From Clostridia bacterium (GTDB lineage Bacteria; Bacillota; Clostridia; Acetivibrionales; STF1-152), in NCBI GenBank assembly GCA_028280575.1, contig JANQLN010000038.1:11267-75266 (forward strand): a stretch of DNA of 64,000 nt. Reading direction: 5' to 3'. How positions within the stretch are numbered: the stretch's first letter is position 1; every line of letters starts with the position of its first letter. Made by a program: the position numbers and the translations under genes. The notes below the pieces were generated by a model. It was not told where the DNA came from. It did no database searches and worked only from the letters and a program-made list of their open reading frames with translations. This document shows, piece after piece, positions 4,752 through 63,922 of the stretch.

Positions 4752-5057
4752 AAGTTGGATATGGAAACAATTTATGCTACAACAACATCATTATCCGATT
4801 TAAAACAAACCCGTTTTTTAAGTGACTGTATTGTAAATGCTGTAACAGTCATTCCAATCCCGCCTAGTAGTTTGTGAATTTTGAAACTGCGGGTTGGATT
4901 GTACTAGGTTTTCTTGCAGTAAGACACGGAAATAACGCTCATTTATTTTTTAGAATCTTGTTTTTTTATGAATAAGAAGCACTTACATTCTAAACTAATA
5001 AAAAAAAGAAGCCAACTGCGTAAATGTAATCGACTTCTTTCGACAAAATATTCGTGC

Positions 5058-5081
5058 AATGTGTGAACAAAATAGATGCAG
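5058..5081 (+). repeat. 24-nt exact repeat, copy B
   Basis: Identical to 1774-1797. The flanking bases after the core also resemble copy A (CAGGTTATAT versus CAGCTTGTAT). Confidence 0.9.
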
Positions 5082-5181
5082 GTTATATTCGTCCACTAAA
5101 CCTAACATTTTAAATTGTATAATGTACAGAAATCACATTAACAATTTCTCTTTTTTCATAAGTAATTATGGTAATTTTAAT

Positions 5182-5835
5182 TTATTCCATTAAAATTTGT
5201 GTCATATTATTCTCTGACAACGGCTTTGTTATAGCAGTAAAAATTTCATTCATTTTAGTATAATCACAGAGGAAAGAAGTAGCACTTGCTTCAATCATTT
5301 GCTTGTTGGTTACCTGAGAAAAATCCACACTATAACCTGCATTTTCAGCCAAATATTCAATAAAGAGTCTTTGTACTCTGCCATTTCCTTCTCTGAAGGG
5401 GTGAAGAACATTGATTTCACTAAGATAATGTGCTAGACAGATTGGGATTTCATCTTTGGAGGCATCCTTTAAGTAATTCTCTTTTTTCAGCTTCTTGAAG
5501 AGTGAATCGGCATTTTGTTCTATAAATTCATAGTTGCAAAACATATTGCCTTTTGCAATATTCACCCATCTAATTTCACCTGCCCATTTATAGATATCAC
5601 CAAATATATACTTGTGAATCTTTTTTAAATGAAGCAGATTAAAATGACCTTTTATAATACTTACTTTTGCATTTGCAATTCTCAAAGATGTTATTTCTCT
5701 TTCAGCTATGCGAAGTTTTTCCCCATCTCTTATACCCAGCTTGTTTATAAGCACATTTGAATGAGGGTAACAATATCTGTGATCCCACTCATAATTGTAA
5801 TCATAACTGTTGCTCATGGCCATATCCTCTGGCAA
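5182..5835 (-). CDS. Fic/DOC family protein (AMPylase-type toxin)
   Basis: Canonical Fic motif HPFREGNGRVQR (HxFx[D/E]GNGRxxR). Confidence 0.9.
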   Translation of the reverse strand: MPEDMAMSNSYDYNYEWDHRYCYPHSNVLINKLGIRDGEKLRIAEREITSLRIANAKVSIIKGHFNLLHLKKIHKYIFGDIYKWAGEIRWVNIAKGNMFCNYEFIEQNADSLFKKLKKENYLKDASKDEIPICLAHYLSEINVLHPFREGNGRVQRLFIEYLAENAGYSVDFSQVTNKQMIEASATSFLCDYTKMNEIFTAITKPLSENNMTQILME

Positions 5836-5992
5836 CTGTATGCTTTTTTATAAGTTCAGCTATTGTTTCTTCAACCAATTCATCATTGCCTGCACAGCGT
5901 CTGATTCTTTCCTTATCAATCTTCGTAAGTGGCATGCCTTCTATTGACATTGAACCGTTAACCTCATCAATTATTTTTTCTAAATCTCTCAT
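5801..5992 (-). CDS. VbhA-like antitoxin of a class I Fic toxin
   Basis: 63 aa, directly upstream of and overlapping fic. It carries the inhibitory motif [S/T]xxxE[G/N] as SMSIEG. Confidence 0.75.
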   Translation of the reverse strand: MRDLEKIIDEVNGSMSIEGMPLTKIDKERIRRCAGNDELVEETIAELIKKHTVARGYGHEQQL

Positions 5993-6624
5993 ATGAACAC
6001 CACCTCCTATATATTATACCATAATTTTAAAAAAGATAGTTAATATTCACTAAACAGCCCTTATTTATCTGCCCATTCAAGAAAACACTTTTGTACATTA
6101 TCTGTTGCATCTTTTCTCTTAGCCTTGTATGAGGCAGTCCATATAGGTTGCACGTTTATAGTCTAAAATCTATTAGAAGTATTTATGCTTTTTTACTTCT
6201 GAAATTAAATCCTTGCAATCTTCCAAATCTTTATTGATAGTATTATCTTCATCCACTTCAACTGTAATAAGCTTTTCTTCTTTTTCTGCACTCTTCTGAT
6301 TGATTCATATTACCGCTCACAAGCCCATCCCCCTCTTTACTCCTCATATTGTGCATATAACTGTAGACACCAAACACAATGGAGGCTGAAATAATAATTA
6401 TAAAACCATCTCCCCTAGTTATTTATGAAAAGGGAATAGCTATTATTACATTTTCAGCTACAATAGACATTGAAATATATAGTAAAAAGTTTTTTTAGAG
6501 CCAATCTTCAGAGCTCAATTTCAACATCATCATGATTTACATAATCACAAAAAAGTGAACTCATACATATTGTGTTTATATATTACTCTTAGTGAGTATA
6601 ATGCTCAATGAGGCAATATTATAA

Positions 6625-9562: not shown

Positions 9563-9639
9563 TGGTGGTCGCTACTGGAATCGAACCAGTGGCCTCTTGC
9601 GTGTCGAGCAAGCACTCTAACCATCTGAGCTAAGCGACC
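9563..9639 (-). tRNA. tRNA-Val (anticodon GAC), CCA encoded
   Basis: Hand-folded cloverleaf: acceptor GGTCGCT/AGCGACC, D arm GCTC..GAGT with GG, anticodon stem CTTGC/GCAAG with loop TCGACAC, T arm ACTGG-TTCGATT-CCAGT, A73, CCA. Position 33 reads C rather than U. Confidence 0.85.
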
Positions 9640-49885: not shown

Positions 49886-51268
49886 TTAATTTTCCTTTGC
49901 AGCATTCCTAGCATTCAAATCTTCAATCATTTGTTTATAGAATACTCTTGTTATTGGGTAAAAGTGTATTGCAACTATGGAGCACAGATGTCCCAGCAGC
50001 GGTCCTCCAAAGAGCATCAGCACGATAGCGTTCTGCACTGCTAACCCCTGCACATGACCACCTACTACAAATCCTAATCCAGCTAATATTGCTCCAACAA
50101 TTACTCCCGGTATTGCCATTCCAAACTTGTTAAAGAAAGTAAAAACACTTGTGACAATACCTGGAGTTCTTAAACCAGTTTTCCATTCACCGTAATCTAC
50201 ACAATCCGGTACCATGGCCCATCTGGTTTGTGAAGTTATAATTCCTATACCTGTTCCAATCGCTAATAATATTATTAATAATATGATATTCTCAAAAGGT
50301 CTGAAAATGATCATAATTGTGGGAATTATCAACCCTAAGTAACTACCCCATTTAAAAATATTTTTCTTGCTGTACTTATTAGCTAAAAGCCCTACTACTA
50401 CCCCCATAATCAATCCTATTGGAAGTATTAACATTGCGCTTACTGATACCAAATCTGTTCTTCTTAATACATGAGCGAAAAAATATACATTAACCGCTGT
50501 AGTAAAACCTGTGGCCATATCATTTGTAGCGCTTGATATTATGAGCATTTGCAAAGCCTTATTACTTTTCAACACTTCCCCCTGCTTAGAAAGAGTTATC
50601 TTTTCGCCTTTCTTTCTGTTTGGATTATATTTATCCTTGTTTTTCAATGACAGTGTAAAAACTCGCCAACCTGCAAATCCAAGTACTGCTAAAATTACAG
50701 CCCAAAGTCTCCATTGTGCTAATGGATTAGTACCAGCGGCTTCGGTAAAGGGAATAGTACCTATCATTACTATACCAACAGCTACTATCGAAGTAAGCAT
50801 TCCTGGTACCGTCAACCACACCCTTTGCGCTGGGTCATTGGTCATTGTACTCCTAGCCGAATGTACACTCATTGCCAGCATTGTATATCCCAATGTAAAC
50901 AACAAATACATCGCGGTCATATAACCGAACTTCATAGATACTTGCAAACCTGAAAACATCAATACCATTGCTAGCGGTGCTATAATACTTCCCCAAAATA
51001 TCCAAGGTCTGAATTGCCCTCTTTTTGTATTTGTGCGGTCAATCATGTTGCCAATAATCGGATCACTTATTGCATCAAACACTCTACCTATCGTCAAAAT
51101 AAGTCCTGCAAATGCGACGCTGATACCGTAGATGTCTGTTGCATAATACATGAGGTAGGATGTTATAAATACAAATAATATGTTTAAGCTAAATCCTTCT
51201 CCACCACCAAATAATATCAGTTCCTTAAGTGATACTTTTTTGTAAATACTTTGCTGTTTTTCTTTCAT
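49886..51268 (-). CDS. glycoside-pentoside-hexuronide (GPH):cation symporter
   Basis: GRVFDAISDPIIGNMIDRTNTKRGQFRPW signature. 12-TM pattern. Confidence 0.85.
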   Translation of the reverse strand: MKEKQQSIYKKVSLKELILFGGGEGFSLNILFVFITSYLMYYATDIYGISVAFAGLILTIGRVFDAISDPIIGNMIDRTNTKRGQFRPWIFWGSIIAPLAMVLMFSGLQVSMKFGYMTAMYLLFTLGYTMLAMSVHSARSTMTNDPAQRVWLTVPGMLTSIVAVGIVMIGTIPFTEAAGTNPLAQWRLWAVILAVLGFAGWRVFTLSLKNKDKYNPNRKKGEKITLSKQGEVLKSNKALQMLIISSATNDMATGFTTAVNVYFFAHVLRRTDLVSVSAMLILPIGLIMGVVVGLLANKYSKKNIFKWGSYLGLIIPTIMIIFRPFENIILLIILLAIGTGIGIITSQTRWAMVPDCVDYGEWKTGLRTPGIVTSVFTFFNKFGMAIPGVIVGAILAGLGFVVGGHVQGLAVQNAIVLMLFGGPLLGHLCSIVAIHFYPITRVFYKQMIEDLNARNAAKEN

Positions 51269-51327
51269 AATACTTCTTCCCTTTTGAAAATTATTTTTTG
51301 CTTAGTATTCTACTTGCTTTAGTTAAA

Positions 51328-53487
51328 TTATCGTATTATTATTTCTTGTTTCAACAGATATGTCTCGTCCGAACATGAACCTACCATAAACTTGTATATT
51401 CCATTTTCAAATTGCCACGACATTCCCTCCTCACTGAAATATCTCAAATTATCTAAAGGTATTTTGATATTTACTTTTTTTGTATCTCCTGCATCTATTA
51501 ATACTTTCTCAAACCCTTTCAGCAATTTTTTATGCCTATCTATCTTTGAATCAGTCATTCCTACATATACTTGTACAACTTCTTCTCCATCCTTTTCTCC
51601 GCTGTTTTTTACTTTGACGGATATATCAACAAGTTCTCCATTCTTTTTAACAGTTAAATCTGAGTATTCATATTTCGTATAGCTCAGCCCAAATCCAAAA
51701 GGATATGCAGGCTTGTTTCCGTCCTTATCAAGTTTTGTATAGCCATGATATAAATCGTATGTTATTTCATCATCCTCACTACTGAAATATGGTAAGTGGT
51801 TTTCGTCTGCAGGAATGGTAAATGGCAATTTCCCGCTTGGATTTACATCGCCAAATAACACTCTAGGCAATGCATTCCCACCTTCCATGCCACTATACCA
51901 ACTGTATATAATCGCAGGAACTTGGTCATCCCACTCTTTGGTCATAATCATTGATCCACTGATTAAGGAGACCACAGTATTTGGATTTATTCTCCCAATT
52001 TCATTAATCACATTAATTTCGCTATCCTTTAACGATAGGCTTGAGCGGTCTCCTCCTGTTGGTTCGCCATCAGCTGTTGTATAAGAGGCTTTTTTTAAAA
52101 AACCTTTAATAAGAAGAGAGCCTATATGTGAGCTTTGATTTTTCAATCCATCAGCTATTATGCTAGTATCTACATCTGACTTCTCATCTGGATTTATACA
52201 TTCACCTTCATCTCTAGCATCATTACCTGCAATTATTACCACGCAGTCACACTTTGCTGCCTCTAGTTTTGCCTTATTAACTTCACTTTCGGCACACAGT
52301 ATAATTTCTACATCATCTCCAAAGTAATTTTTAAATCCTTCTAATTGTGTAATAACATACGGTGCATATATTCTACTGCTTCCAAAGTCTCCTGTATTAG
52401 CTTTTGTCGCCAGCTTACCTACCAGCAATATCCTTTTCGCGCTTTTATCAAAAGGCAGTACATTATCTTTATTCTTAATAAGCACCATTGATTTTTCCGC
52501 TGCTTCCAAAGCAAGTTCAGTATGTTCTTTGCATGCAATCAATTCTTCTGTATACTCCATTTTATCAGGCGTATTATCAAATACCAGAACTGTTTTTATC
52601 ACTCTTTTTGCTGCTTCATCTACAGTTTCTTCTGAGATTTCACCATTCTTCACTTTTTCAAGCATTTTTCTCTGATAATGTATTGGCATAGGCATCTCAA
52701 CGTCTAAACCACCTTCTATCGCCTTCTTAGTATCTCTTACGCCAAATAAGAAGTCAGAAATTGAAAATCCTTCAAATCCCCACTCATCCCTAAGCACTTT
52801 ATTAAGCAGATAATCACTCTCGCAAGCAAAGTCTCCCCTGAATTTATTGTACGCTCCCATAACAGATGCAGCACCTGCATCAAAACACTTTTTAAAGTGA
52901 GGCAAATATACTTCTCTTAATGTTCTTTCATCACACTGAACATCTACTCTAAACCTTGAGTTCTCAATACTGTTTAGGGCATAGTGTTTAGGACAAGCCA
53001 TTACGTTATGTTCCTGCACTGCCTCTGTCAATTCTTTTCCGAATTCACCTACATGATATGGGTCTTCACCATAGGTTTCCTGTGCTCTGCCCCAAGCTGG
53101 ATGACGAAGCAAATTGATACATACACCGGCAAAGTAGTTTGCTCCCTGTGACCTAGCTTCTTTACCTATTACATCACCGATTCTTCTTTCCAAATTCCTG
53201 TCAAAACTAGCTCCTCTTGCCATTGATACAGGAAAACATGTAGAGTGCCCCATAACAATCCCTCGTGGACCATCTGTAAACTTTATAGGAGTAACTCCAA
53301 GACGTTTGCAGCCATTTGTCTCAATGGGAACTGGATTATAAGCGTTTTTATGCTTTATCATATTCTTAATAATATTCCAGTTGCCATTAAGCATCCATAC
53401 CTTTTCTTTCAATGTCATTTTTGAAAGTGTTTCATTTGCCTTTTCGTCGATTTGCTTATCAGTTAAATTACACTTTTTATTAAACAT
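51328..53487 (-). CDS. GH3 beta-glucosidase/beta-xylosidase-type enzyme
   Basis: KFTDGPRGIV, the GFEGFSISDF nucleophile region and a C-terminal Fn3-like domain. Confidence 0.85.
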   Translation of the reverse strand: MFNKKCNLTDKQIDEKANETLSKMTLKEKVWMLNGNWNIIKNMIKHKNAYNPVPIETNGCKRLGVTPIKFTDGPRGIVMGHSTCFPVSMARGASFDRNLERRIGDVIGKEARSQGANYFAGVCINLLRHPAWGRAQETYGEDPYHVGEFGKELTEAVQEHNVMACPKHYALNSIENSRFRVDVQCDERTLREVYLPHFKKCFDAGAASVMGAYNKFRGDFACESDYLLNKVLRDEWGFEGFSISDFLFGVRDTKKAIEGGLDVEMPMPIHYQRKMLEKVKNGEISEETVDEAAKRVIKTVLVFDNTPDKMEYTEELIACKEHTELALEAAEKSMVLIKNKDNVLPFDKSAKRILLVGKLATKANTGDFGSSRIYAPYVITQLEGFKNYFGDDVEIILCAESEVNKAKLEAAKCDCVVIIAGNDARDEGECINPDEKSDVDTSIIADGLKNQSSHIGSLLIKGFLKKASYTTADGEPTGGDRSSLSLKDSEINVINEIGRINPNTVVSLISGSMIMTKEWDDQVPAIIYSWYSGMEGGNALPRVLFGDVNPSGKLPFTIPADENHLPYFSSEDDEITYDLYHGYTKLDKDGNKPAYPFGFGLSYTKYEYSDLTVKKNGELVDISVKVKNSGEKDGEEVVQVYVGMTDSKIDRHKKLLKGFEKVLIDAGDTKKVNIKIPLDNLRYFSEEGMSWQFENGIYKFMVGSCSDETYLLKQEIIIR

Positions 53488-53645
53488 GTTAACACCTCGT
53501 TAGCTATGTCCAATTTTTCCACTATTCTTCAGAACGCATAATAGTTGATTTTGTGCATAGTATAGCACAATTTTCGCATTATCTATATCAATATTCTAGT
53601 ATTTGTGATAATATATCAATATAGCAAGCAGTTTGAGGGTAAGAA

Positions 53646-54812
53646 ATGAATAAAAGTTGGATTTATGAAAAAATTAATACCTACCACATGATTTCTAATC
53701 TACCAATCAGAGCATATGATATCAATAAAAATATGCTTTGTGAGTGCGGAAAAATTAAGGCTCCCTTTAGCTTCTTAGGTGGGTTTGATAAGGCAATTTT
53801 TAACTCAAAGAAACAGTTTAATAACTATAAAAATCAGAACAACGAATATTTCATCTCAATGTATGTTGATAATTCAAAAGGAAAATTTTATGTTATTGTG
53901 GGTCCATTTATGTATCATCAACTTACATACAAGGAAATAAAAAGCATGGCTCAATCCAAGAACATAATAGATGATAATATCAATAATGTAATTGAGTATT
54001 TTTCTTCTCTAATGAAAATAAAGATAGATTCACTAACCTATCACTATAAATATCTTGCACAGTTATTAGAAGTTACATATTCATTACTTAAAAACAATAC
54101 AGCAGATATTCAAGAGCAACAATTCATTGAGAAAAATAAGCTGGAATATAGAGAAATAGATTTTTATCACCATAGTTATTTAGTAGAAAGGCAATTTCTC
54201 AATCACTTTTTTAAGGGAAGACTAACAGAACTTGAACGTAAAAATATGAGCAGTATTGAACCTGGCCTTATATCAGAGGATTATACCAGAAACACAAAAA
54301 ATCTATGTATAGTTACAATTACATTGATCGAACGTTATGCTATAGAACACGGAATGGATGCTCACACTTCATTTACCATCGGGGACGCTTACTTGCGAAA
54401 AATTGAAAAGTCAAATAATATATCCGATATCAGAGTATTTTTCGAGCAATCACTTGATGTATATTCTGAAGCGATTAAAAAAGCTAACGAAATTAAATAC
54501 TCTAAGAAAATTAATGAGACAAAAAATTTCATCGACCATAATCTTTCAATGAGTTTTTCTGTACAGGATATTGCAGACTATACAAAAACACATCCGACAT
54601 ACTTATCCTACCTATTTAAAAAAGAGATTGGTATGACTATTACTCAGTATATTCTTAATGAGAAGATAAGTGAAGCTAAAAGTCTGCTAGACTTTTCAAA
54701 CCATACTCTGCAGGAGGTCTCAGATATTCTGAATTTTAGTTCAAAAAGCTACTTTATTCACTGCTTTAAGAAGGTAGTCGGTGTAACTCCAACTGTATAT
54801 AGAAATAGGTAA
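53646..54812 (+). CDS. AraC family transcriptional regulator
   Basis: C-terminal double HTH ...IADYTKTHPTYLSYLFKKEIGMT...FSSKSYFIHCFKKVVGVTPTVYR. Confidence 0.85.
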   Translation: MNKSWIYEKINTYHMISNLPIRAYDINKNMLCECGKIKAPFSFLGGFDKAIFNSKKQFNNYKNQNNEYFISMYVDNSKGKFYVIVGPFMYHQLTYKEIKSMAQSKNIIDDNINNVIEYFSSLMKIKIDSLTYHYKYLAQLLEVTYSLLKNNTADIQEQQFIEKNKLEYREIDFYHHSYLVERQFLNHFFKGRLTELERKNMSSIEPGLISEDYTRNTKNLCIVTITLIERYAIEHGMDAHTSFTIGDAYLRKIEKSNNISDIRVFFEQSLDVYSEAIKKANEIKYSKKINETKNFIDHNLSMSFSVQDIADYTKTHPTYLSYLFKKEIGMTITQYILNEKISEAKSLLDFSNHTLQEVSDILNFSSKSYFIHCFKKVVGVTPTVYRNR

Positions 54813-54911
54813 TATAATGTTATTGGTTCTGGTGCAAAAAAATCTTGCAATTAATTAATTTAGAGAGAATATGATATAATTATTATAAAAAGTTTGGGAG
54901 AATTATATCAC

Positions 54912-55500
54912 ATGAAAAACAATCTATTTAAGTGACAGCGATTTCGGACATATGATGAAGTCACTATTTTGCGTTTGAAGCAGATAATCGTATTACGAAA
55001 ACTCAGGATTCCGCTTAAAAGTATCGCCAAAGTATTACTAACAGAAAAATACAACCCTTGCGATTGAAGTGTTCCAGCAAAAACTGAGTGAGATAGGGGA
55101 CGAAATAGCTGCTTTAACAATTATTAAAAGCTTAATTCAGTCCTTTATTGAACGTTTGAATATTAAAAACGCTAAACTGCAATTGCTTGATAACGAAAGC
55201 CTATTGGAAATTGTTGATTCTCTAACTGTCTCTAAAATTAGTTTCAAGGAGGATAAAACAATGGATGACCTGAACAAAGCAAGTGAAAAACTTAACAAGT
55301 TGACAGACAAGGATGTGAGGATTGTATATCTTCCACCTGCGACGGTAGCATCGAGCCATTATATTGGCGATGAACCGGAACATAATGCGGCATCGGTGAT
55401 GGATAAATACGTGCGTCAAAGCGATTTGCCGAACATTAAACCAGATATGCGTCAGTATGGATTTAATCGCCCCAACCTTGGTCAGGGACACTTTTCGTGA
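54912..55500 (+). pseudogene. MerR-family regulator with a GyrI-like effector domain, disrupted
   Basis: MKNNLFK then a stop. The wing/dimerisation helix RFRTYDEVTILRLKQIIVLRKLRIPLKSIAKVL is in another frame and ends in a stop. The ORF resumes at 55069 and ends early within the effector domain. Confidence 0.65.
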
Positions 55501-55622
55501 TTTTACCCTGACCACTTTCACATAAGTTCTGTTAAAACTGCGTATAACATGATAAAATAAATGATGCCATACAGATGGCACCTTTTTATAGTATAATTTA
55601 AGATAAAATCCAATAAACGTCT

Positions 55623-58600
55623 ATGGGAGGAAGTCTTTTGAGTATAAAAATTAAAGGAGCAAATGCAAATAATTTAAAGAATATTGATTTAGAAATAGAG
55701 GAATGTCACACCGTTTTTACAGGCGTATCTGGTTCAGGAAAATCTTCCCTTCTTTTTGATACGATTTATCATGAAGCTCGTAGACGGCTTTTTGCTATGT
55801 TCCGCATCAATAATGAGATTGCACAGCTTTCACCTACAGAAGTACAATCAATTAATGGGTTAAAGCCGGCAATTGCAATTATACAAAATGTAAAAAATAG
55901 GAATCCTAATTCTACACTGGCAACAGCTACCGGGATACATGTTCTGCTGCGAATTCTTTATGCCAATTATGGTGTACAGCATTGCAGCAAATGTGGTACA
56001 CCATTTCATTTACGCTCTGAGGATAAGATCGTTGAAGGGATTGTGAAATTATCACAAGAAGAAAGAATAGAAATTCACGCCCGCATTCTTAACAAAGTGA
56101 AGGGAAGTCATCGAAGTTTATTACGACTTCTATATACAGATTTTCCGGAGTATGAATTTATAGTTAATGGAAAAAACAGTAAGCCTCATTCATTAGAAAA
56201 AAACCAATCACATACCATTACTGTTAGACTCAATAAAAACTTTAACAATATAACCCTGGCAAAAGTTCGTGAAATCATTAAAGTAACGAAACAATTTGGC
56301 GTAGGTTTTCTTATGCTTAGTAGATTAGATCACGGTAAAACCTATATATTGCCATTTAAACGTATTTGCCCCGAATGTAATGGGATAATTGGAAAATTAG
56401 AACCACCCCTATTTAATAAAAACTGTCCCTTTTGCAATGGAAAAGGGTGTAACAATTGCGAAAAAACAGGTATGCATCCAATAGCAGCAGCAACTACTTG
56501 GCAAGGTTATACATTTCAAAATATAATGGGCTTATCTTTGGAAGAGTTCTGGCGTTTAATTAATAGAGACAATCTCCTGCCAGCTTCCGGTGAAGCAATA
56601 CATAAAGAGCTGATAAAAAAATGTGCATCTTTACTTGCTATAGGACTTGGTTACATAAATCTTGACCGGCTTTCGCCCACTTTATCCCGTGGAGAATATC
56701 AGAGGCTACAAATAGCAAGGGCAATGGCTAACGACTTAGAGGATGTTATGTATCTTCTAGATGAACCAACCATCGGTTTGCATCCTGCAGAAATTAGAGA
56801 GATTTTACCGACTATTGGCAAGCTCAAAGGAACTGTTTTAACAATTGAACATGATAAGCAAGCCATCTTGAGTGCTGATCGATGTATTGAATTAGGACCA
56901 GGAGCTGGTGAAAACGGTGGCAAAGTCACCTATATTGGTAATCCTTCCTCATTACCGGGTATGGATGATGTAATACTCACAAAAAGGTATCCAGTCAAGC
57001 CTACATCATTTATTGATGTAAAAGGAGCAAAGATACGAAATTTAAAAAATATTGATATTTCAATACCAATCAGATGTTTGACTGTCATTGCAGGTGTATC
57101 TGGTTCAGGGAAAAGCACATTGGTAGAGGATGTTCTTTTGCCATCGTTTATCAAAAATAAAACAGTAGCGTGCAAGGCGATTAGTAGCCCCATTAAAAAG
57201 GTAATGTTTGTTAACCAAGCCCCCATTGGTTTGAACACTAGGTCCAATCCTGCTACCTATACACAACTTTTTAATGACATTCGAGAATACTTTGCTTGGC
57301 AAACAGGTTTATCTGTTTCTGACTTTGTACCAAGTCCAGGTAAAGGCGCCTGTGTTTATTGTAATGGACTTGGAGAAAAAGAAGTTAAGATGCGGTATCT
57401 TCCTTCTACATGGTTAAAATGTCCCGTCTGTAATGGTAGTCGATATAATAAAGAGATTATGTCTAATATGATATTCATTGGAGAGAGAGGACTTTCTATA
57501 GCTGATTTTTTAGATTTACAGGTATCCAAGGTATGGTCACTGGTTGTAAACGGTACTTTATCCTTACATGATTTCCCCAAAGCAGAATCATTTAAAGCAA
57601 AGCTGCAGGCACTTATTGATGTTGGGCTTTCCTATATCAAATTAGGGCAACCGGCTCCAACGTTATCCGGTGGAGAAGCTCAAAGGGTAAAATTGGCAAA
57701 AATTTTGGGACAACGAATGGCTTCTGAAATGCTACTTATATTTGACGAGCCTACAACCGGACTCCACAAAAAAGATGTAGAAAGGATACTTTTGATATTT
57801 GACCGTCTGAAAGAAAAAGGGATAACTGTTCTTGTTATTGAACATAATGTGGATGTGATAAGGCATGGAGATTGGTTAATTGAACTTGGGCCTGGTTCTG
57901 GACCTGCAGGCGGAGACCTTATGTTTATGGGTCCTCCTGAAGAATTGGCTTCTTCAGGTACAAAAACAGCCCTTTCTTTACAAGAGGAGCTGTTTAAGTC
58001 ACAAGCAGTTGCTCCTTGTAAAAAAGAAAGCAATTCAATTTATGTAAATAATGCCTATGCTAACAATTTAAAGAATATTTCATTAACAGTACCCAAAAAT
58101 GAAATGGTTGTGATTACTGGTGTATCCGGATCTGGGAAATCCACTTTAGTAAGGGATGTTATTGAAGCAGAGGCAAAGAGACGCTTCTTAGAAACCCTTA
58201 CTACCTATGAACGTTATAATATTCATGAAACAAAGGGCAGTGACGTAGAGAGTATTAGCGGTTTAGGGCTTGCGTGTACCATTGCACCGGAAAAATGGAT
58301 GTATAGTCCTAGGTCTACAATTGGAACAATTACAAGGATTTATGAAACGCTAGGGATTTTATACGCTAGAATCGGAAATCGAAATTGTCCAAATTGCAGT
58401 ATCTTGATGAAAAACGTTCAGGATGGTTGGTATTGTTCTCATTGTGAAAATCATTACCCATACCCTGACCCGAAGAGCTTTCTTCCAAGCAGCTATACAG
58501 GCGCATGTACAGTTTGTCAAGGTGTTGGAACAGTACAACACCTTAATGAAAATAAGATTATTGTTCAAATCGACAAACCTTTACTAAAAGGGGCTATGTA

Positions 58601-60464
58601 TTCCCCAGGTTTTTTTCCAAAAGGATTTTTAGGAAAACCAGGAAATAGCGGTTATTATTTAGTAAGAGCCTTTGCAAAACGATATGGTTTTGATCCCGAA
58701 TACACACCATGGAAAGATATGTCCAAAGAAGCCAAACAAAAATTTTTGTTTGGTGACGAGAAACCCATGACCGTACGATTTGAAAATACAAAAGGGAAGG
58801 CATATACTCAAATCCTGCCATTTCCTGGTTTTCAAGGATGGGTTATAAATTGGGATATAGGAGGCACATACACGGATCGTTTGTGCTGCCCTGGATGTGG
58901 TGGCAGTGGATTAAAGCCAGAGTTCAATGAAATTACCTTGTTAGGTTATAACATTCATGAGTTATGCCAGATATCTATTGAAGAACTAAACATAGTATTA
59001 AAAGATACAAAAGAAAAAGCAATTAGCATTCCGTTACTGAGAAAAGTTTGGTATAGCTTAGAACAAAAACTACAGTTTATGCTCCAAACTGGTTTGTCTT
59101 ATGTTAACTTAGGACGTTTTTCCTCCACACTTTCTGCCGGTGAAGCACAACGAATTAAATTGACTACATTACTGGAAAATGAAATGAACGGCTTATTAGT
59201 ATTGTTGGACGAACCAACACGAGGGATGCATAGTACCGAAGTGTCCAATCTCATAGACGCACTGATAAAAATAAAAACAAGGGGCAACACCTTGATAGTG
59301 GTAGAACATGACACAAATGTTATGCAAGCAGCAGATACTATGATTGAAATTGGTCCTAAAGCAGGTAACCATGGTGGAGAGATTGTTGCTTCAGGCAAAT
59401 TGGAACAATTGTTGCAACTAGATACCGTTACAACAAAATGGATAAAATCACCTTATCCTTACGTAAAACGTACTCGAAGACAACCTAAAGGATTTGTAAC
59501 AATTGTAAACGCAACTGAAAATAATCTAAAAATAGAAAAGTTAGATATCCCACTAGGGACATTGACAGGAATATGCGGAATATCAGGTTCTGGGAAAAGC
59601 ACGCTGATTACTGATACCATTGCACGTTCACAAATTAAACGAAAACAAACAACTTCCGTTTCATATGAATTGATGGCAACCGGACATTATGAATCCATCA
59701 TTGGCATTCCGAAAAAAGTTGTGATGGTAGACCAGTCAAAGGTTGATATAACGAATATTGCGAGATATATAGGAATTGATAAGCTGTTAATTGAGATTTA
59801 TCAAAGTAATGAGGCTTCCTTTGTTAAAGGACTCAATCAATATTCTTACAAAAAAAATTGTACCGAATGCGGTGGCAAGGGAAATCAAAAAGTGGATATG
59901 GAATTCATGGAGGTTATTCATGTTCCATGTGAGGCTTGTAATGGAACAGGATATGGACTGGAAGCATGGGAAGTAAAAATTAAAGGATATTCATACCCCA
60001 AATTATTCCAAATGAATCTGGAAGAGCTACATCAACTTTGGGCAGAGCATGATAAAATTGACCGAATATTAGGAAGTATTGAAGAGGTTGGGCTTTCATA
60101 CCTTTTATTAGGCCAACCACCTCATTCCCTTTCTTCTGGCGAAGTTCAACGTCTAAAGCTTGCAATGGCATTGCTTAAAAAAGAAAGATCTGGGACCCTT
60201 TACATTTTAGATGAACCAACCGTTGGTTTGCATAATGAAGATGTGCAGCTTTTGATTAATGTATTGAATAAGCTGGTGGAAAAGGGGAATTCGCTATGGG
60301 TTGTGGAACATCATATGAATATGCTTGCTTCCTGCGACTATTTAATTGAACTTGGCCCCAAAGGCGGTCCCCAGGGTGGCAGAATTATAGCACAAGGTAC
60401 ACCGGAGCAAATGTCACAGTTTAATACACCAACCGGAAAAGAATTGGAGGTAATACTTAAATGA
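55623..60464 (+). CDS. tandem-duplicated UvrA-like ABC ATPase (4 nucleotide-binding modules, multiple Zn-finger modules)
   Basis: Four Walker A motifs (GVSGSGKSSL, GVSGSGKSTL, GVSGSGKSTL, GISGSGKSTL) are each paired with a signature plus Walker B (LSRGEYQRL..LLDEPTIGLH, LSGGEAQRV..IFDEPTTGLH, LSAGEAQRI..LLDEPTRGMH, LSSGEVQRL..ILDEPTVGLH). CxxC pairs occur in both halves. The start is more likely the TTG at 55638, 6 nt after GGGAGGAAG. Confidence 0.85.
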   Translation: MGGSLLSIKIKGANANNLKNIDLEIEECHTVFTGVSGSGKSSLLFDTIYHEARRRLFAMFRINNEIAQLSPTEVQSINGLKPAIAIIQNVKNRNPNSTLATATGIHVLLRILYANYGVQHCSKCGTPFHLRSEDKIVEGIVKLSQEERIEIHARILNKVKGSHRSLLRLLYTDFPEYEFIVNGKNSKPHSLEKNQSHTITVRLNKNFNNITLAKVREIIKVTKQFGVGFLMLSRLDHGKTYILPFKRICPECNGIIGKLEPPLFNKNCPFCNGKGCNNCEKTGMHPIAAATTWQGYTFQNIMGLSLEEFWRLINRDNLLPASGEAIHKELIKKCASLLAIGLGYINLDRLSPTLSRGEYQRLQIARAMANDLEDVMYLLDEPTIGLHPAEIREILPTIGKLKGTVLTIEHDKQAILSADRCIELGPGAGENGGKVTYIGNPSSLPGMDDVILTKRYPVKPTSFIDVKGAKIRNLKNIDISIPIRCLTVIAGVSGSGKSTLVEDVLLPSFIKNKTVACKAISSPIKKVMFVNQAPIGLNTRSNPATYTQLFNDIREYFAWQTGLSVSDFVPSPGKGACVYCNGLGEKEVKMRYLPSTWLKCPVCNGSRYNKEIMSNMIFIGERGLSIADFLDLQVSKVWSLVVNGTLSLHDFPKAESFKAKLQALIDVGLSYIKLGQPAPTLSGGEAQRVKLAKILGQRMASEMLLIFDEPTTGLHKKDVERILLIFDRLKEKGITVLVIEHNVDVIRHGDWLIELGPGSGPAGGDLMFMGPPEELASSGTKTALSLQEELFKSQAVAPCKKESNSIYVNNAYANNLKNISLTVPKNEMVVITGVSGSGKSTLVRDVIEAEAKRRFLETLTTYERYNIHETKGSDVESISGLGLACTIAPEKWMYSPRSTIGTITRIYETLGILYARIGNRNCPNCSILMKNVQDGWYCSHCENHYPYPDPKSFLPSSYTGACTVCQGVGTVQHLNENKIIVQIDKPLLKGAMYSPGFFPKGFLGKPGNSGYYLVRAFAKRYGFDPEYTPWKDMSKEAKQKFLFGDEKPMTVRFENTKGKAYTQILPFPGFQGWVINWDIGGTYTDRLCCPGCGGSGLKPEFNEITLLGYNIHELCQISIEELNIVLKDTKEKAISIPLLRKVWYSLEQKLQFMLQTGLSYVNLGRFSSTLSAGEAQRIKLTTLLENEMNGLLVLLDEPTRGMHSTEVSNLIDALIKIKTRGNTLIVVEHDTNVMQAADTMIEIGPKAGNHGGEIVASGKLEQLLQLDTVTTKWIKSPYPYVKRTRRQPKGFVTIVNATENNLKIEKLDIPLGTLTGICGISGSGKSTLITDTIARSQIKRKQTTSVSYELMATGHYESIIGIPKKVVMVDQSKVDITNIARYIGIDKLLIEIYQSNEASFVKGLNQYSYKKNCTECGGKGNQKVDMEFMEVIHVPCEACNGTGYGLEAWEVKIKGYSYPKLFQMNLEELHQLWAEHDKIDRILGSIEEVGLSYLLLGQPPHSLSSGEVQRLKLAMALLKKERSGTLYILDEPTVGLHNEDVQLLINVLNKLVEKGNSLWVVEHHMNMLASCDYLIELGPKGGPQGGRIIAQGTPEQMSQFNTPTGKELEVILK

Positions 60465-61474
60465 ATAAGTTGTCCTTGTTATTGACGAATCCATCTCATT
60501 GCCTTCGATGGCAGGTTGTCCGTGACCTTGGTTTGGAAACAGAAGAACTTGTAGAGCTTGAGGAAATGCGAAGACAAGATGCGATTTTACAAACACTACT
60601 GAAATTCCAAAATTCAGATGGTTCTTTTCGTCCAGATAAGTTAACGGCTACCAGTTCTGTTATACAAGCAACGGCTATAGCACTTACGAAGCTGGAATTC
60701 TTTGGGTTTGACAATTCTATGCCGGAAGTAGAACGTGCAGCTTCTTATCTTTTTTCGATTCAGCACAAAGATGGTTCTTGGCCATGTCAGAATGTTGACG
60801 TAGCAGATGGTGAAGCGTACGACATGGTGCCCCTTCAAACAGCATATCCGCTTTGGGGGCTTGCCAGCGTAGGGTATGCGAAACATCCTCAAGCAGAAAA
60901 AGGTTATGATTGGCTTCTTTCCAAACAGCTTGATGATGGTGCCTGGCCAGTGGGTACCGCATCAGGAAATTATGGGTATATTGCAGGTTACAGAAAGCTT
61001 CCAAATTCAAGACAGGGATGTCGTGTAAATACAATCTGTGCACTCCTTGCATTTTCTTATCATGAGGTAAGGAAAAAGGATACGAAAATACGCAGAGGAT
61101 TAGATGTGCTCCTTGGAAGACAAACCTATGACCGGTACTGTATGGGATATAATGCTGCCCGTTGCATTGGTGTTGAGCCATCCTCCGGCTTTTTCAGCTA
61201 TTTTGCTTATCATGATATTGTGATTATAGCTGAGTTAGTAGTAAGATTTGGTGGGGGTTTGCAAGACAATAGAATAGAAAAGTTAGTCATTTTTGTTAAT
61301 GAATGCCAAAATCCAATGGGATTATGGGAATATGAAAAATCTCCTGCGGTTACTCATTGGCTAACTTACAGACTTGGCAAAGCGATAGAGAAAATTGAAT
61401 ATAATGACAGTTGGATAAATATAAACCCTTCTGTTTCGCTGAATGCCTACAAAAAAGGAAAAATAAGGTTTTAG
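60461..61474 (+). CDS. prenyltransferase/terpene-cyclase-like (alpha/alpha toroid, QW-type repeat) protein
   Basis: Repeated Q-x-x-(D/M)-G-x-(W/F) motifs: FQNSDGSF, IQHKDGSWP, KQLDDGAWP, CQNPMGLWE. ATGA start/stop overlap with the UvrA-like gene. No DxDD or DDxxD motif seen. Confidence 0.65.
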   Translation: MNKLSLLLTNPSHCLRWQVVRDLGLETEELVELEEMRRQDAILQTLLKFQNSDGSFRPDKLTATSSVIQATAIALTKLEFFGFDNSMPEVERAASYLFSIQHKDGSWPCQNVDVADGEAYDMVPLQTAYPLWGLASVGYAKHPQAEKGYDWLLSKQLDDGAWPVGTASGNYGYIAGYRKLPNSRQGCRVNTICALLAFSYHEVRKKDTKIRRGLDVLLGRQTYDRYCMGYNAARCIGVEPSSGFFSYFAYHDIVIIAELVVRFGGGLQDNRIEKLVIFVNECQNPMGLWEYEKSPAVTHWLTYRLGKAIEKIEYNDSWININPSVSLNAYKKGKIRF

Positions 61475-61521
61475 TAAATTATGATAAAGCGTCACAAGAG
61501 AGCTTATATATCTACAATAAA

Positions 61522-62289
61522 ATGGCCTGTATGACAGATTTGAAAATTGGTGATTATGTAAGATTTAGAAAAATGGCTCTTGCAGCGGAGGACATTAAAA
61601 ATACTGATATAAAGGTTGTTGATCTATCGCTTAAATATGGATATAAATCTCCTGAAGCGTTCACAAGAACTTTTCAATCTTTTCATGGAATGCCGCCAAC
61701 AGTTGTTCGAAGGCTTGGGATATCCAAAAACTATCAACCAATCTCTTTTCAAATAAAAATTACCGGAGGTAGTATTATGACTGGTTTAAATTCATTGACT
61801 CGTATTGAAGAATTGGATAACGTAAAAGCAGTTTCTTTTCAGGCAAATTGTGATGGTCCTGAAACACCAGCATGGAATCAATTGCGGGAATGGGCTATAA
61901 AAAACTTGAACGACTACGAAGCAAGGAGGTATATTGGTTTTGCACCGATGGGACATCATCCTACAGGCGAAGACAACGATTTTCACTAATATAAAGCCCA
62001 AATGTTATTATATAGTGAAGAAGGATACAACGGCAATTTTTTTGGAATGGAGGTAATTGAAGCGCCGAAAGGATTATTCCTTGTTGGAGATGTAGTGTTG
62101 AATGAGTTTCACGAAGATGGGACCTTAGACTTAGGTGCGTCAATGAAAAAATCATCACAGATTATTTATGAGTGCATGTTGAACATGGGTGAATATGATA
62201 TAGATTTTGACGGAAGGACTTATTTAGAGGAACACATTTTCCCGGAAGAATGGTTTGTGGCTGATGATCCCTCAAAAATTCTAATTTGA
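61522..62289 (+). pseudogene. AraC-HTH/GyrI-like effector-binding regulator, N-terminally truncated with an in-frame stop
   Basis: Only the second AraC HTH is present (LKYGYKSPEAFTRTFQSFHGMPPTVVRR). The GyrI-like domain is interrupted by TAA at 61987-61989 and continues in the same frame as ORF 62002-62289. Confidence 0.65.
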
Positions 62290-62664: not shown

Positions 62665-63060
62665 ATGGAGGAATTAACTATGACCAGAAGTGAATTGATC
62701 AAAGCGGGTATTCAAGCATCCTTTGAAACCGGTACATCCAAGATGGCAGACAAAATCTGCTATGGTTATTCAAAAGCTCCTAAGGGCAGTTTGACCATCA
62801 ATGAAAAGAAAGCTCAAATTATGCGATTCATTTTTGACCGCTATCACTGCGGTGACAGTTTAGGGAAAATCGTCAATACATTGGCTGAAAAGAAAGTGGC
62901 CTCCCCATCCGGCAAAGATAAGTGGAACCGTAAGGTTGTGGGATTGTCCAATGAAAAATATATTGGACAGGTTCTGCTTCAAAAGACAATTGTTCAGGAT
63001 CGTCAGCAAATCAAAAATAATATTAAAACACAGTATCTTCTAGAAGATGATTTTAAATGA
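62665..63060 (+). pseudogene. large serine recombinase fragment (central recombinase domain only)
   Basis: CYGYSKAPKGSLTINEKKAQIMRFIFDRYHCGDSLGKIVNTLAEKKVASPSGKDKWNRKVV..NEKYIGQ. It lacks the N-terminal catalytic Ser domain and the C-terminal zinc-ribbon/coiled coil. Confidence 0.7.
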
Positions 63061-63178: not shown

Positions 63179-63922
63179 ATGAAAACAATGCATATTAAAT
63201 GGAGAGCAGTTATAGTTACTACTATTTTAGGAATATTTATGTTATCAATATTTTTCGCTAAATATTATGCTGATAATAAAAAAAATAACGAAGTAGATAA
63301 TTCTACTGAATATAATAATATAAAAAAAAATAAACATGATATGTCCAAAGAACAAATTATTAAATGGATAGAAGAACAAGGAGAGAATGACACATATTAT
63401 TATGATGGACTTTCATATGAACTAGCCAATTTAGATAATGATTCTGAATTGGAAGTAGTTGCAAAAATTGAGGCTGGAGTAAATTTAGGGCAATTCTTTA
63501 TTTTTGATAAAAAACATGATGAAAGATACCACTTAATAATAGAGCTAGATTGGAAAGTAGAAAGTTGGAATTTATATAATCCTATAGCTGATCCTGTAGA
63601 AGTTGGAAACAAAAAAATATTTGAAATAGTAACTAGGACAGGAGGTACAGGAGTGGTTGTTTGTGAAGTTTATTTGTGGTATATAAAAGATGGAGAGTTT
63701 ATTCAAGCATGGAAAGGAATATTAAAAGAGCGATCAGTTTTTCAAGATGAATATTTTTTAAAAATAGGTAATTATCAATTTAATAATGAAAATAATCAAA
63801 TATATGCATGGTTAAGCAGTTATAAATATAAATTAGATGGAGTTACGCTTGAGGAGAGTTATGGAACTAATACGATGACTTACAGATTTGATGGAACTAA
63901 TTTTTGTTACATAGCACAATAA
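63179..63922 (+). CDS. membrane-anchored hypothetical protein
   Basis: N-terminal TM (AVIVTTILGIFMLSIFFA) and a very AT-rich gene. It contains ELANLDNDSELEVVA (FG-GAP-like loop). Confidence 0.55.
   Translation: MKTMHIKWRAVIVTTILGIFMLSIFFAKYYADNKKNNEVDNSTEYNNIKKNKHDMSKEQIIKWIEEQGENDTYYYDGLSYELANLDNDSELEVVAKIEAGVNLGQFFIFDKKHDERYHLIIELDWKVESWNLYNPIADPVEVGNKKIFEIVTRTGGTGVVVCEVYLWYIKDGEFIQAWKGILKERSVFQDEYFLKIGNYQFNNENNQIYAWLSSYKYKLDGVTLEESYGTNTMTYRFDGTNFCYIAQ

Follow-up and report, generated by a model that had tools for sequence, protein, structure and literature searches.

A single-chain double UvrA and an overlapping alpha/alpha-toroid gene form a conserved pair in Bacteria and Archaea

What does a UvrA-type protein do when it carries four ATP sites on one chain, and why does the gene of a small toroidal protein begin inside its stop codon? 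These questions are raised by a locus in a 64,000-nucleotide stretch of DNA from a Clostridia bacterium (contig JANQLN010000038.1, positions 11,267 to 75,266), which is referred to here as the window. The locus holds two genes, one for a protein made of two UvrA-like halves, which we call UvrA2x, and one for a smaller protein predicted to fold as an alpha/alpha toroid, which we call the toroid. Both had been picked out in a sequence-only reading of the window, and the open reading frames (ORFs) and ATGA overlap given there were reproduced at the following positions.

55623-60464, plus strand: UvrA2x gene, encoding a single-chain double UvrA of 1613 residues (ORF; TIGR00630; matches to UvrA structures in the PDB; motif conservation in 119 homologues).
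60461-61474, plus strand: toroid gene, encoding a predicted cytoplasmic alpha/alpha toroid of 337 residues with a QW-repeat barrel (PF13243; AlphaFold2 model with a predicted local distance difference test score, pLDDT, of 88; Foldseek matches at the level of fold only).
60446-60464, plus strand: coupling junction between the UvrA2x and toroid genes (GGAGG, 10-nt spacer, ATGA).

The start of the toroid gene overlaps the UvrA2x stop codon as ATGA in a junction that reads ...AAATGAATAAG, and a Shine-Dalgarno sequence, GGAGG, is found at 60446-60450, 10 nt before the toroid ATGA. From this overlap of stop and start, the toroid is predicted to be translated from the same transcript as UvrA2x. To see how far this arrangement extends, loci were scanned using one genome per species, and 69 toroid loci were found (these and further loci are numbered with an L below). 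A UvrA-like gene lies directly upstream on the same strand in 64/64 of the loci with upstream DNA, and the remaining five begin at a contig edge. Complete UvrA-like genes at these loci are ~4.8 kb long, intact copies encode 1590-1720 residues, and the 4-nt overlap of stop and start is present in most intact loci and also in L073, L079, L080, and L081. Coming from the other gene, the toroid was directly downstream in all four contexts that were found through the ATPase (Xylocopilactobacillus, Theionarchaea, Aminicenantes, and one 936-kb contig). The pairwise identities of the two proteins among 45 genomes correlate with a Mantel r of 0.95, a value reached by 0 of 999 permutations, and the median identity is ~53% for both. 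The sequence-only reading had allowed that the adjacency might be peculiar to one genome; instead, the two genes lie side by side at all informative loci, across two domains of life. On this evidence UvrA2x and the toroid are strictly co-inherited and, as the overlapping genes predict, co-expressed.

The hosts include Chloroflexota, Actinomycetota, Bacillota, Bacteroidota, Spirochaetales, Patescibacteria, Aminicenantes, Bathyarchaeia, Theionarchaea, and several Asgard lineages, and the pair is widespread in uncultured Chloroflexota, Bathyarchaeia, and Asgard archaea. The toroid family itself is rare: a word-seeded search of 5.8 billion proteins gave 28 clusters, and an exhaustive profile search of 1.84 billion proteins gave 61 representatives at E <= 1e-30, with generic QW-repeat proteins beyond. 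Full-text literature searches gave no account of either the pair or a fused class of UvrA, in keeping with the earlier statement that no known system joins a UvrA-like protein to a toroid.

Some loci hold less than a full pair. An intact toroid gene is preceded by a C-terminal double-UvrA fragment in Bathyarchaeota CP070784.1 (L030, 8166-11035; a 612-residue ORF) and in Actinopolymorpha sp. B11F2 (L050, 8916-10942; 348 residues), and each of these two loci is a copy in decay or a minimal variant. In L075 and L076 a frameshift divides the ATPase gene. Two distant full-length relatives of the toroid sit on contigs of <2 kb, where partner context is uninformative.

What kind of protein, then, has been kept beside UvrA2x? 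The toroid passes the threshold of the Pfam family SQHop_cyclase_C (PF13243; 48.6 bits, cutoff 26.1), has QW-like motifs at residues 50, 101, 156, and 283, and is modelled by AlphaFold as a confident alpha/alpha toroid (pLDDT 88, predicted template-modelling (TM) score 0.89). The DxDD, DDxxD, and NSE/DTE motifs are absent from its 337-residue sequence, so the earlier description of a QW-repeat toroid lacking DxDD and DDxxD holds. Scores against the NCBIfam cyclase models are 41.7-48.4 bits, where the cutoffs are 322.7-851, and the score against PF00432 (prenyltransferase beta) is 22.0 bits, under the threshold of 26.5; of residues that could correspond to the Asp/Cys/His zinc site of that family, invariant C187, H201, and D252 are present. 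Foldseek neighbours are squalene-hopene cyclase, drimenyl-diphosphate synthase, MstE, thioester domains, and farnesyltransferase beta, at TM-scores of 0.33-0.49, with squalene-hopene cyclase the best match by sequence and by fold, and profile alignments with PDB entries limit the homology to the QW helix-hairpins. By motif and score, the toroid is not a predicted terpene cyclase. These results bear on the explanation that the adjacency has no functional meaning, the toroid being some small enzyme of terpenoid or prenyl metabolism that shares an operon with a UvrA paralogue. The nearest Pfam and NCBIfam match is indeed the squalene-cyclase C-terminal domain, but the missing motifs, the scores far under every cyclase cutoff, and the restriction of homology to hairpins fit such an enzyme poorly, no isoprenoid genes were found among the nearest neighbours of the pair, and the adjacency is universal wherever it could be checked, with a conserved overlap and tight co-divergence. 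We regard a coincidental operon as hardly credible.

Conservation within the toroid was computed on 86 unique sequences, in which 33 positions are at least 98% conserved; the protein is as conserved as its ATPase partner. The polar residues among these positions include S12, R16, E29, Q101, Y120, Q126, Y177, R178, C187, R188, T191, H201, R234, D252, D269, and W300, and many of them fall in one loop that is specific to the family.

60953-61033, plus strand: family-specific invariant loop of the toroid, G165...A175-G-Y177-R178-K-L-P-x-S-x-x-G186-C187-R188-x-N-T191 (at least 98% conserved in the 86 unique sequences).

Neither this AGYRKLPxSxxGCRxNT loop nor H201, R234, and D252 has a counterpart in solved structures according to the PDB profile alignments. 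Together with H201, R234, D252, and D269, the loop is a candidate functional site, and the polar cluster suggests a specific binding or catalytic site over a passive hydrophobic sponge. No obvious signal peptide was seen by eye.

Is the partner still a working UvrA? UvrA2x scores 1223.2 bits against TIGR00630 (cutoff 729.8), summed over four stretches from the two halves, and 1221.4 bits against NF001503, above the cutoff of 1147, and each half scores ~490-500 bits against the solved class I UvrA structures. The halves and the signatures of their nucleotide-binding domains (NBDs) are laid out as follows.

55623-58028, plus strand: half 1, residues 1-802 (NBD-1 with Walker A at residue 34 and signature LSRGE at 354; NBD-2 with Walker A at 491 and LSGGE at 681).
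58029-60461, plus strand: half 2, residues 803-1613 (NBD-3 with Walker A at residue 833 and signature LSAGE at 1170; NBD-4 with Walker A at 1319 and signature at 1503).

Walker A, signature, Walker B, and H-loop motifs each occur four times, and the six zinc (Zn) modules are built from twelve CxxC pairs. The halves are only 29% identical to each other, which points to an ancient fusion rather than a tandem duplication of recent date. Across 119 aligned full-length homologues, the Walker A Lys, the signature Ser/Gly/Glu, the Walker B Asp-Glu, and the H-loop His are essentially invariant at all four sites, and the signatures are fixed per site as LSRGE, LSGGE, LSAGE, and LSGGE, with the LSRGE variant of NBD-1 in 118/119. 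All six Zn modules are 100% conserved. The earlier account, in which two UvrA units are joined covalently with all four ATP sites intact and Zn modules in each half, is borne out, and UvrA2x is, as judged by its motifs, a catalytically intact, single-chain, asymmetric UvrA-type ATPase or pseudo-dimer.

The asymmetry is most evident in the accessory domains. Half 1 aligns contiguously with residues 4-283 of T. maritima UvrA, through the UvrB-binding domain, and then with 585-903, and is without ~110 residues at the position where the insertion domain is expected. Half 2 aligns with residues 2-125 and then skips to 248-912, bypassing the UvrB-binding domain and retaining the insertion domain.

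55995-56366, plus strand: sole UvrB-interaction-type domain, residues ~125-248 (PF17760; flanked by the Zn1 pairs C121/C124 and C249/C252).
56424-56459, plus strand: collapsed Zn2 knuckle of half 1, 12 residues at the canonical insertion-domain site (C268, C271, C276, and C279, all four 100% conserved).
58386-58445, plus strand: collapsed Zn1 knuckle of half 2, 20 residues where the UvrB-interaction domain is deleted (C922, C925, C938, and C941, 100% conserved).
58518-58886, plus strand: sole insertion (DNA-clamp) domain, residues ~966-1088 (PF17755; flanked by the Zn2 pairs C962/C965 and C1089/C1092).

Pfam places PF17760 in half 1 at residues 132-229 (profile positions 2-102 of 109, E 2e-4) with 21.4 bits, below the cutoff of 23.3, and by alignment this domain matches T. 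maritima UvrA 110-256 end to end; a Pfam scan of sub-segments did not find PF17760 in half 2. The DNA-binding family PF17755 (UvrA_DNA-bind) is found in half 2 at residues ~1011-1070, with 32.2 bits against a cutoff of 23.2, and was not found in a sub-segment scan of residues 284-458 of half 1, where the spacing from Walker A to signature in NBD-1 is just ~317 residues. The sequence-only reading had supposed that both halves are short through loss of the UvrB-binding domain, in the manner of class II UvrA proteins, and this has to be corrected: only half 2 lost that domain, and half 1 lost the insertion domain. The halves have lost complementary domains family-wide, leaving UvrA2x with exactly one UvrB-interaction-type domain and one insertion domain.

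Which protein would the sole UvrB-interaction-type domain bind? Its family invariants are D134, G161-S162-H163, T165, H197, and G226, with Arg216 at 96%, and with such conservation the domain is evidently under selection. One explanation is that UvrA2x serves as an alternative front end that loads host UvrB, one copy and not two, with the toroid tuning lesion specificity or regulating the ATPase. The end-to-end alignment with the canonical UvrB-binding domain, the conserved Arg216, the retention of the insertion domain and all DNA-side Zn modules, and scores above the NCBIfam UvrA cutoffs would all fit such a role. However, PF17760 stays under its threshold, and the position six residues after Arg216 is Ala or Val in the UvrA2x family, where canonical UvrA has a Glu that forms part of the UvrA-UvrB contact in G. 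stearothermophilus. Linkage of uvrB or uvrC to the pair was not seen in the ~80 loci examined, which come from at least ten phyla, and an obligatory, tightly co-diverging toroid is left unexplained. Loading of host UvrB is, in our view, unlikely, and the partner of the domain may be UvrB, the toroid, or both.

Does the pair depend on any other gene? No conserved third gene was found by clustering, with no flanking-ORF family present in >13 of the 69 loci. ABC-transporter ATPases, the commonest flanking family (13 loci), were considered for this place and set aside, as their position and strand are scattered. The 121 nearest neighbours represent 120 Pfam families, the commonest of which was seen five times. 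With no conserved third gene and such heterogeneous neighbours, the module seems to be self-sufficient.

The neighbours also bear on the suggestion, made from the window alone, that the locus is a self-resistance relic of a lost biosynthetic cluster for a DNA intercalator, of the DrrC/Ecm16 type. Class IIa UvrA paralogues do play such a role (PMC9328131), and in one actinobacterial locus (L054) a DrrA-type ABC ATPase gene lies directly downstream of the pair, at 37 nt. On the other hand, no polyketide synthase, non-ribosomal peptide synthetase, or other biosynthetic cluster was found in the ~80 loci, the fused architecture with its retained UvrB-interaction-type domain is unlike class IIa, and the pair also occurs in uncultured anaerobic archaea and in Listeria elements described below. 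We therefore consider a self-resistance relic very improbable, the suggestion having no support in these loci; protection against a DNA-binding drug, which had been proposed alongside it, is possible.

Where the pair is mobile, its setting is more regular. In five Firmicutes contexts, Listeria monocytogenes (for example assemblies GCA_048628655.1 and GCA_025436155.1) and four metagenomic contigs, it fills the accessory-gene slot of integrative and conjugative elements (ICEs) of the Tn916 family. These are laid out as TpcC, NlpC-P60, and VirB4-like (AAA_10) conjugation genes, the pair, a WYL regulator, and sigma70_r4 and HTH_16 genes, and they terminate with a tyrosine integrase or a large serine recombinase. 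Taking flanking conjugation and regulatory modules plus an integrase or recombinase as the mark of Tn916-family cargo, the pair was assigned to such cargo in L070-72, L074, L082, L083, and L084; the L074 contig starts at the UvrA2x gene, and its downstream ICE module alone is visible. A Bacteroidota conjugative-transposon context was also seen, in which the ATPase is frameshifted. WYL as a component of the system was rejected, being limited to related Firmicutes ICEs, as was the Cys-rich DUF3795, which occurs in two or three loci only. A DUF3795 gene follows the toroid gene in a Firmicutes ICE (L074, 5983-6408) and in a Theionarchaeon (L079, 12105-12440), the two proteins being 28% identical, with a weak third match in L004, and it could be an occasional accessory component.

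Cargo of this kind raises the question of whether the pair acts in anti-phage or anti-plasmid defence, with UvrA2x recognising foreign or modified DNA and the toroid as effector or co-sensor. The mobile-element setting in Firmicutes and Bacteroidota and the patchy phyletic distribution are what such a system might show, the adjoining WYL/WCX regulators are of a type that is frequent beside defence systems (PADLOC lists WYL as CRISPR-associated), and the best PADLOC match of UvrA2x is the MADS mad3 ABC ATPase. The pair, however, brings no nuclease, NADase, protease, or membrane effector, the toroid matches no PADLOC model, and the mandatory MAD6-8 of MADS are absent as separate genes. No conserved defence island was found, PADLOC hits among the 121 neighbour ORFs being sporadic (11 families, each in one or two ORFs), and the pair was not found in phage genomes or viral contigs, while the plasmid matches are generic squalene-cyclase genes. 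A median identity of ~53% across two domains of life is also unusually conservative for a defence system. The defence role listed among the earlier proposals thus gains no support by association from PADLOC or the phage and viral collections, and we consider it doubtful.

Defence-related genes do lie near some of the elements. In the three Listeria monocytogenes loci (L070-L072, 15560-21014), a UvrD-type helicase, a DUF2813/AAA_15/AAA_21 ATPase that makes with it a Gabija-like pair, and a SIR2_2 gene are present; in L070 and L071 the Gabija-like pair and SIR2_2 genes sit just beyond the integrase end, which indicates that the ICE landed beside a host defence island. Genes for ArdA anti-restriction and HEPN_AbiU2 proteins lie in the Tn916-family element of L082 (923-2294), upstream of the conjugation genes.

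Transporter and repair genes are found beside other copies. In L081, a major facilitator superfamily (MFS) gene of the LacY/nucleoside-H+ symporter type (4976-6001) ends one base into the start codon of the double UvrA (6001), which suggests that the two are co-transcribed, and in L080 a CNT-type nucleoside transporter gene lies ~320 nt downstream of the toroid. AlkD/AlkC-like HEAT-repeat genes lie ~0.3-1.7 kb downstream of the pair in four Hodarchaeota (Asgard) loci, for example L044 (10563-11321) and L046; this proximity may reflect the shared synteny of relatives rather than functional linkage.

What would such a pair do? The reading that we favour, tentatively and as something possible rather than probable, is that of an autonomous, horizontally mobile two-protein DNA-surveillance module for adducts or xenobiotics, in which the toroid takes the downstream role of UvrB. 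UvrA2x would scan duplex DNA for helix distortions, as the UvrA dimer does, and the toroid would dock on it, most plausibly on the sole, re-tuned UvrB-interaction-type domain, and so replace UvrB as the downstream factor. The toroid barrel with its polar cluster (R16, E29, Y120, Q126, Y177, R178, C187, R188, T191, H201, R234, D252, D269, and W300) could then bind or process an exposed bulky moiety, either an adduct or a DNA-bound or intercalated compound, and the net outcome would be tolerance to DNA-damaging or DNA-binding xenobiotics. Such tolerance would explain the presence of the pair in the resistance-cargo slot of Tn916-family elements, beside a WYL regulator. We lean to a surveillance module because of the Ecm16 precedent, the resistance-cargo position, the WYL regulator, and the scattered transporter, AlkD-like, and drug-sensor neighbours.

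Several points weigh against this. The docking of the toroid on UvrA2x is a step that we infer, and with Arg216 retained in the UvrB-interaction-type domain, UvrB could still be its partner. The pI of the toroid is 7.0 (5.6-9.0 across the family), near-neutral and not that of an obvious DNA binder. The WYL regulator occurs only in related ICEs, where its target may be the element and not the pair, and the transporter, repair, and sensor neighbours are sporadic and were counted without a control set. A bolder form of the idea is that the pair is an ancient lesion-processing pathway parallel to UvrABC, in Bacteria and in Archaea including Asgard lineages, in which UvrA2x passes distorted DNA to the toroid and not to the helicase-nuclease UvrB/UvrC, and Cys187-Arg188 (at a helix N-terminus), His201, and Asp252 of the toroid directly reverse, capture, or cleave a bulky adduct. 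We think this quite unlikely; if true, no alpha/alpha-toroid protein before it would have had a part in DNA repair, and a UvrA-type sensor would be guiding direct reversal or adduct removal.

Does the copy in the window itself belong to a mobile element? It is flanked by relics, as follows.

54890-55500, plus strand: decayed MerR-type regulator (helix-turn-helix (HTH) fragment broken by stop codons, followed by a GyrI-like/Cass2 domain that is cut short).
55565-55580, plus strand: hairpin resembling a terminator, with a T-run after it, 43 nt before the start of UvrA2x (consensus match only).
61411-62289, plus strand: AraC-type HTH fragment, then a broken reading frame (HTH_18 at residues 44-101, Pfam).
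62665-63060, plus strand: large serine recombinase relic, middle 'Recombinase' domain only (PF07508, E 4.8e-9).

The surviving HTH of the MerR_1 relic is the C-terminal part only, and the next ORF holds the beginning (~57 positions) of a GyrI-like/Cass2 effector domain. In the AraC relic the second HTH alone was detected, the frame is broken at ~61990, and 64 nt at the 5' end are shared with the toroid gene; the stretch after the HTH resembles a GyrI-like domain by eye, and no Pfam family was found in residues 104-192 or in 62002-62286. The recombinase relic is 31% identical to residues 169-265 of the recombinase that terminates the pair-carrying ICE in L082. A search for ICE backbone remnants in the window matched this serine-recombinase fragment and no other ICE gene, and of the modules that mark Tn916-family cargo the window copy has the recombinase fragment only. 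The surroundings had earlier been described as drug-sensor pseudogenes, tRNA remnants, and a recombinase fragment. The MerR/GyrI-like, AraC-HTH, and serine-recombinase relics stand, and the tRNA remnants do not: ARAGORN found only a tRNA-Val (9563-9639), and nothing credible came from 53-64 kb in a permissive scan with Rfam.

An intact sugar-utilisation unit lies at 49886-54812. Its minus-strand genes encode an MFS_2 glycoside transporter and a GH3 beta-glucosidase, an AraC regulator gene (53646-54812) diverges from them, and the sign of the GC skew flips at ~54 kb with gene orientation. Beyond the recombinase relic, a 247-residue ORF (63179-63922) has a hydrophobic N-terminal segment and no significant Pfam match.

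Why should this pair matter? UvrA is among the best-studied DNA-damage sensors. To our knowledge, the division of labour between the protomers of its dimer is unclear, as are the roles of UvrA paralogues outside excision repair, and UvrA2x, as a natural asymmetric single-chain 'dimer', offers a ready tool to dissect asymmetry in UvrA function. We know of no earlier link between the toroid fold and DNA transactions, and the toroid partner points to a downstream step other than UvrB/UvrC. If the pair gives tolerance to genotoxic drugs, disinfectants, or microbial genotoxins, this would be of practical relevance given its presence in ICEs of Listeria monocytogenes and other Firmicutes. What is new here is the architecture of a UvrA-type sensor and the obligate partner that goes with it, and the pair could be a categorically new repair or tolerance pathway.

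How, finally, does the pair compare with known systems? The toroid shares QW hairpins and a predicted barrel with class II terpene cyclases and other alpha/alpha toroids (2sqc, drimenyl-diphosphate synthase, MstE, prenyltransferase beta, and the thioester domains of complement and alpha2-macroglobulin). Terpene cyclases, however, are two-barrel proteins, whereas the toroid is a single barrel of 337 residues, predicted to be cytoplasmic and linked to a putative DNA-scanning ATPase instead of isoprenoid genes. Among defence systems, the best match of UvrA2x in the PADLOC library is MADS mad3 (PDLC04135, 374 positions, the length of a single module), with 397.6 bits over six stretches, and the mad8 ATPase profile gives 159.7 bits. 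MADS is an eight-gene operon whose authors' detection model requires MAD6-8 (10.1101/2023.03.30.534895). MAD6, MAD7, and MAD8 were not found as separate genes near the pair. The likeness is one of UvrA-like ABC modules only.

Class II and IIa UvrA proteins (Deinococcus UvrA2, 2vf7; DrrC; Ecm16, 7sh1) are ATPases of the UvrA family with roles beyond classical repair, and they are without the UvrB-binding domain, as is half 2 of UvrA2x. Ecm16, a class IIa paralogue, gives echinomycin resistance through ATP hydrolysis without UvrB or UvrC, and class IIa proteins have neither the first zinc finger nor the domain that binds UvrB (PMC9328131). These are single units of ~750-850 residues, whereas UvrA2x is fused, has a toroid, and stands outside biosynthetic cluster contexts; Zn1 and the UvrB-interaction-type domain, both missing from class IIa, are retained in half 1, and half 2 still has the collapsed Zn1 cysteines. 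The UvrA2x halves also score lower against 2vf7 and 7sh1 than against class I structures. By its Zn1 and UvrB-interaction-type domain in half 1 and its lack of biosynthetic context, UvrA2x is placed outside class II/IIa.

Covalently duplicated UvrA proteins have already been catalogued as PRK00635 (NF001885, 1809 positions), the ~1790-residue UvrA of Chlamydiae. UvrA2x resembles it in being a double chain, but its 848.6 bits over three stretches are far below the cutoff of 3054, which makes UvrA2x a separate lineage. UvrA2x also resembles class I UvrA (TIGR00630/PRK00349; 3pih, 2r6f, and 3zqj), which has, like each UvrA2x half, two ABC modules with Walker A, Q-loop, signature, Walker B, and H-loop and three Zn modules. 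Class I UvrA is a homodimer of ~940-residue chains, whereas UvrA2x is one 1613-residue chain of two diverged halves; the class I protomer carries both the UvrB-binding and the insertion domain, where each UvrA2x half keeps one and has lost the other. The UvrA2x signatures LSRGE (NBD-1) and LSAGE (NBD-3) replace the class I LSGGE, and, unlike class I UvrA, UvrA2x has an obligate toroid partner and no uvrB/uvrC linkage in ~80 loci. UvrA2x is thus assigned to the UvrA family and departs from the class I definition in its chain organisation and in the domains carried by each protomer.

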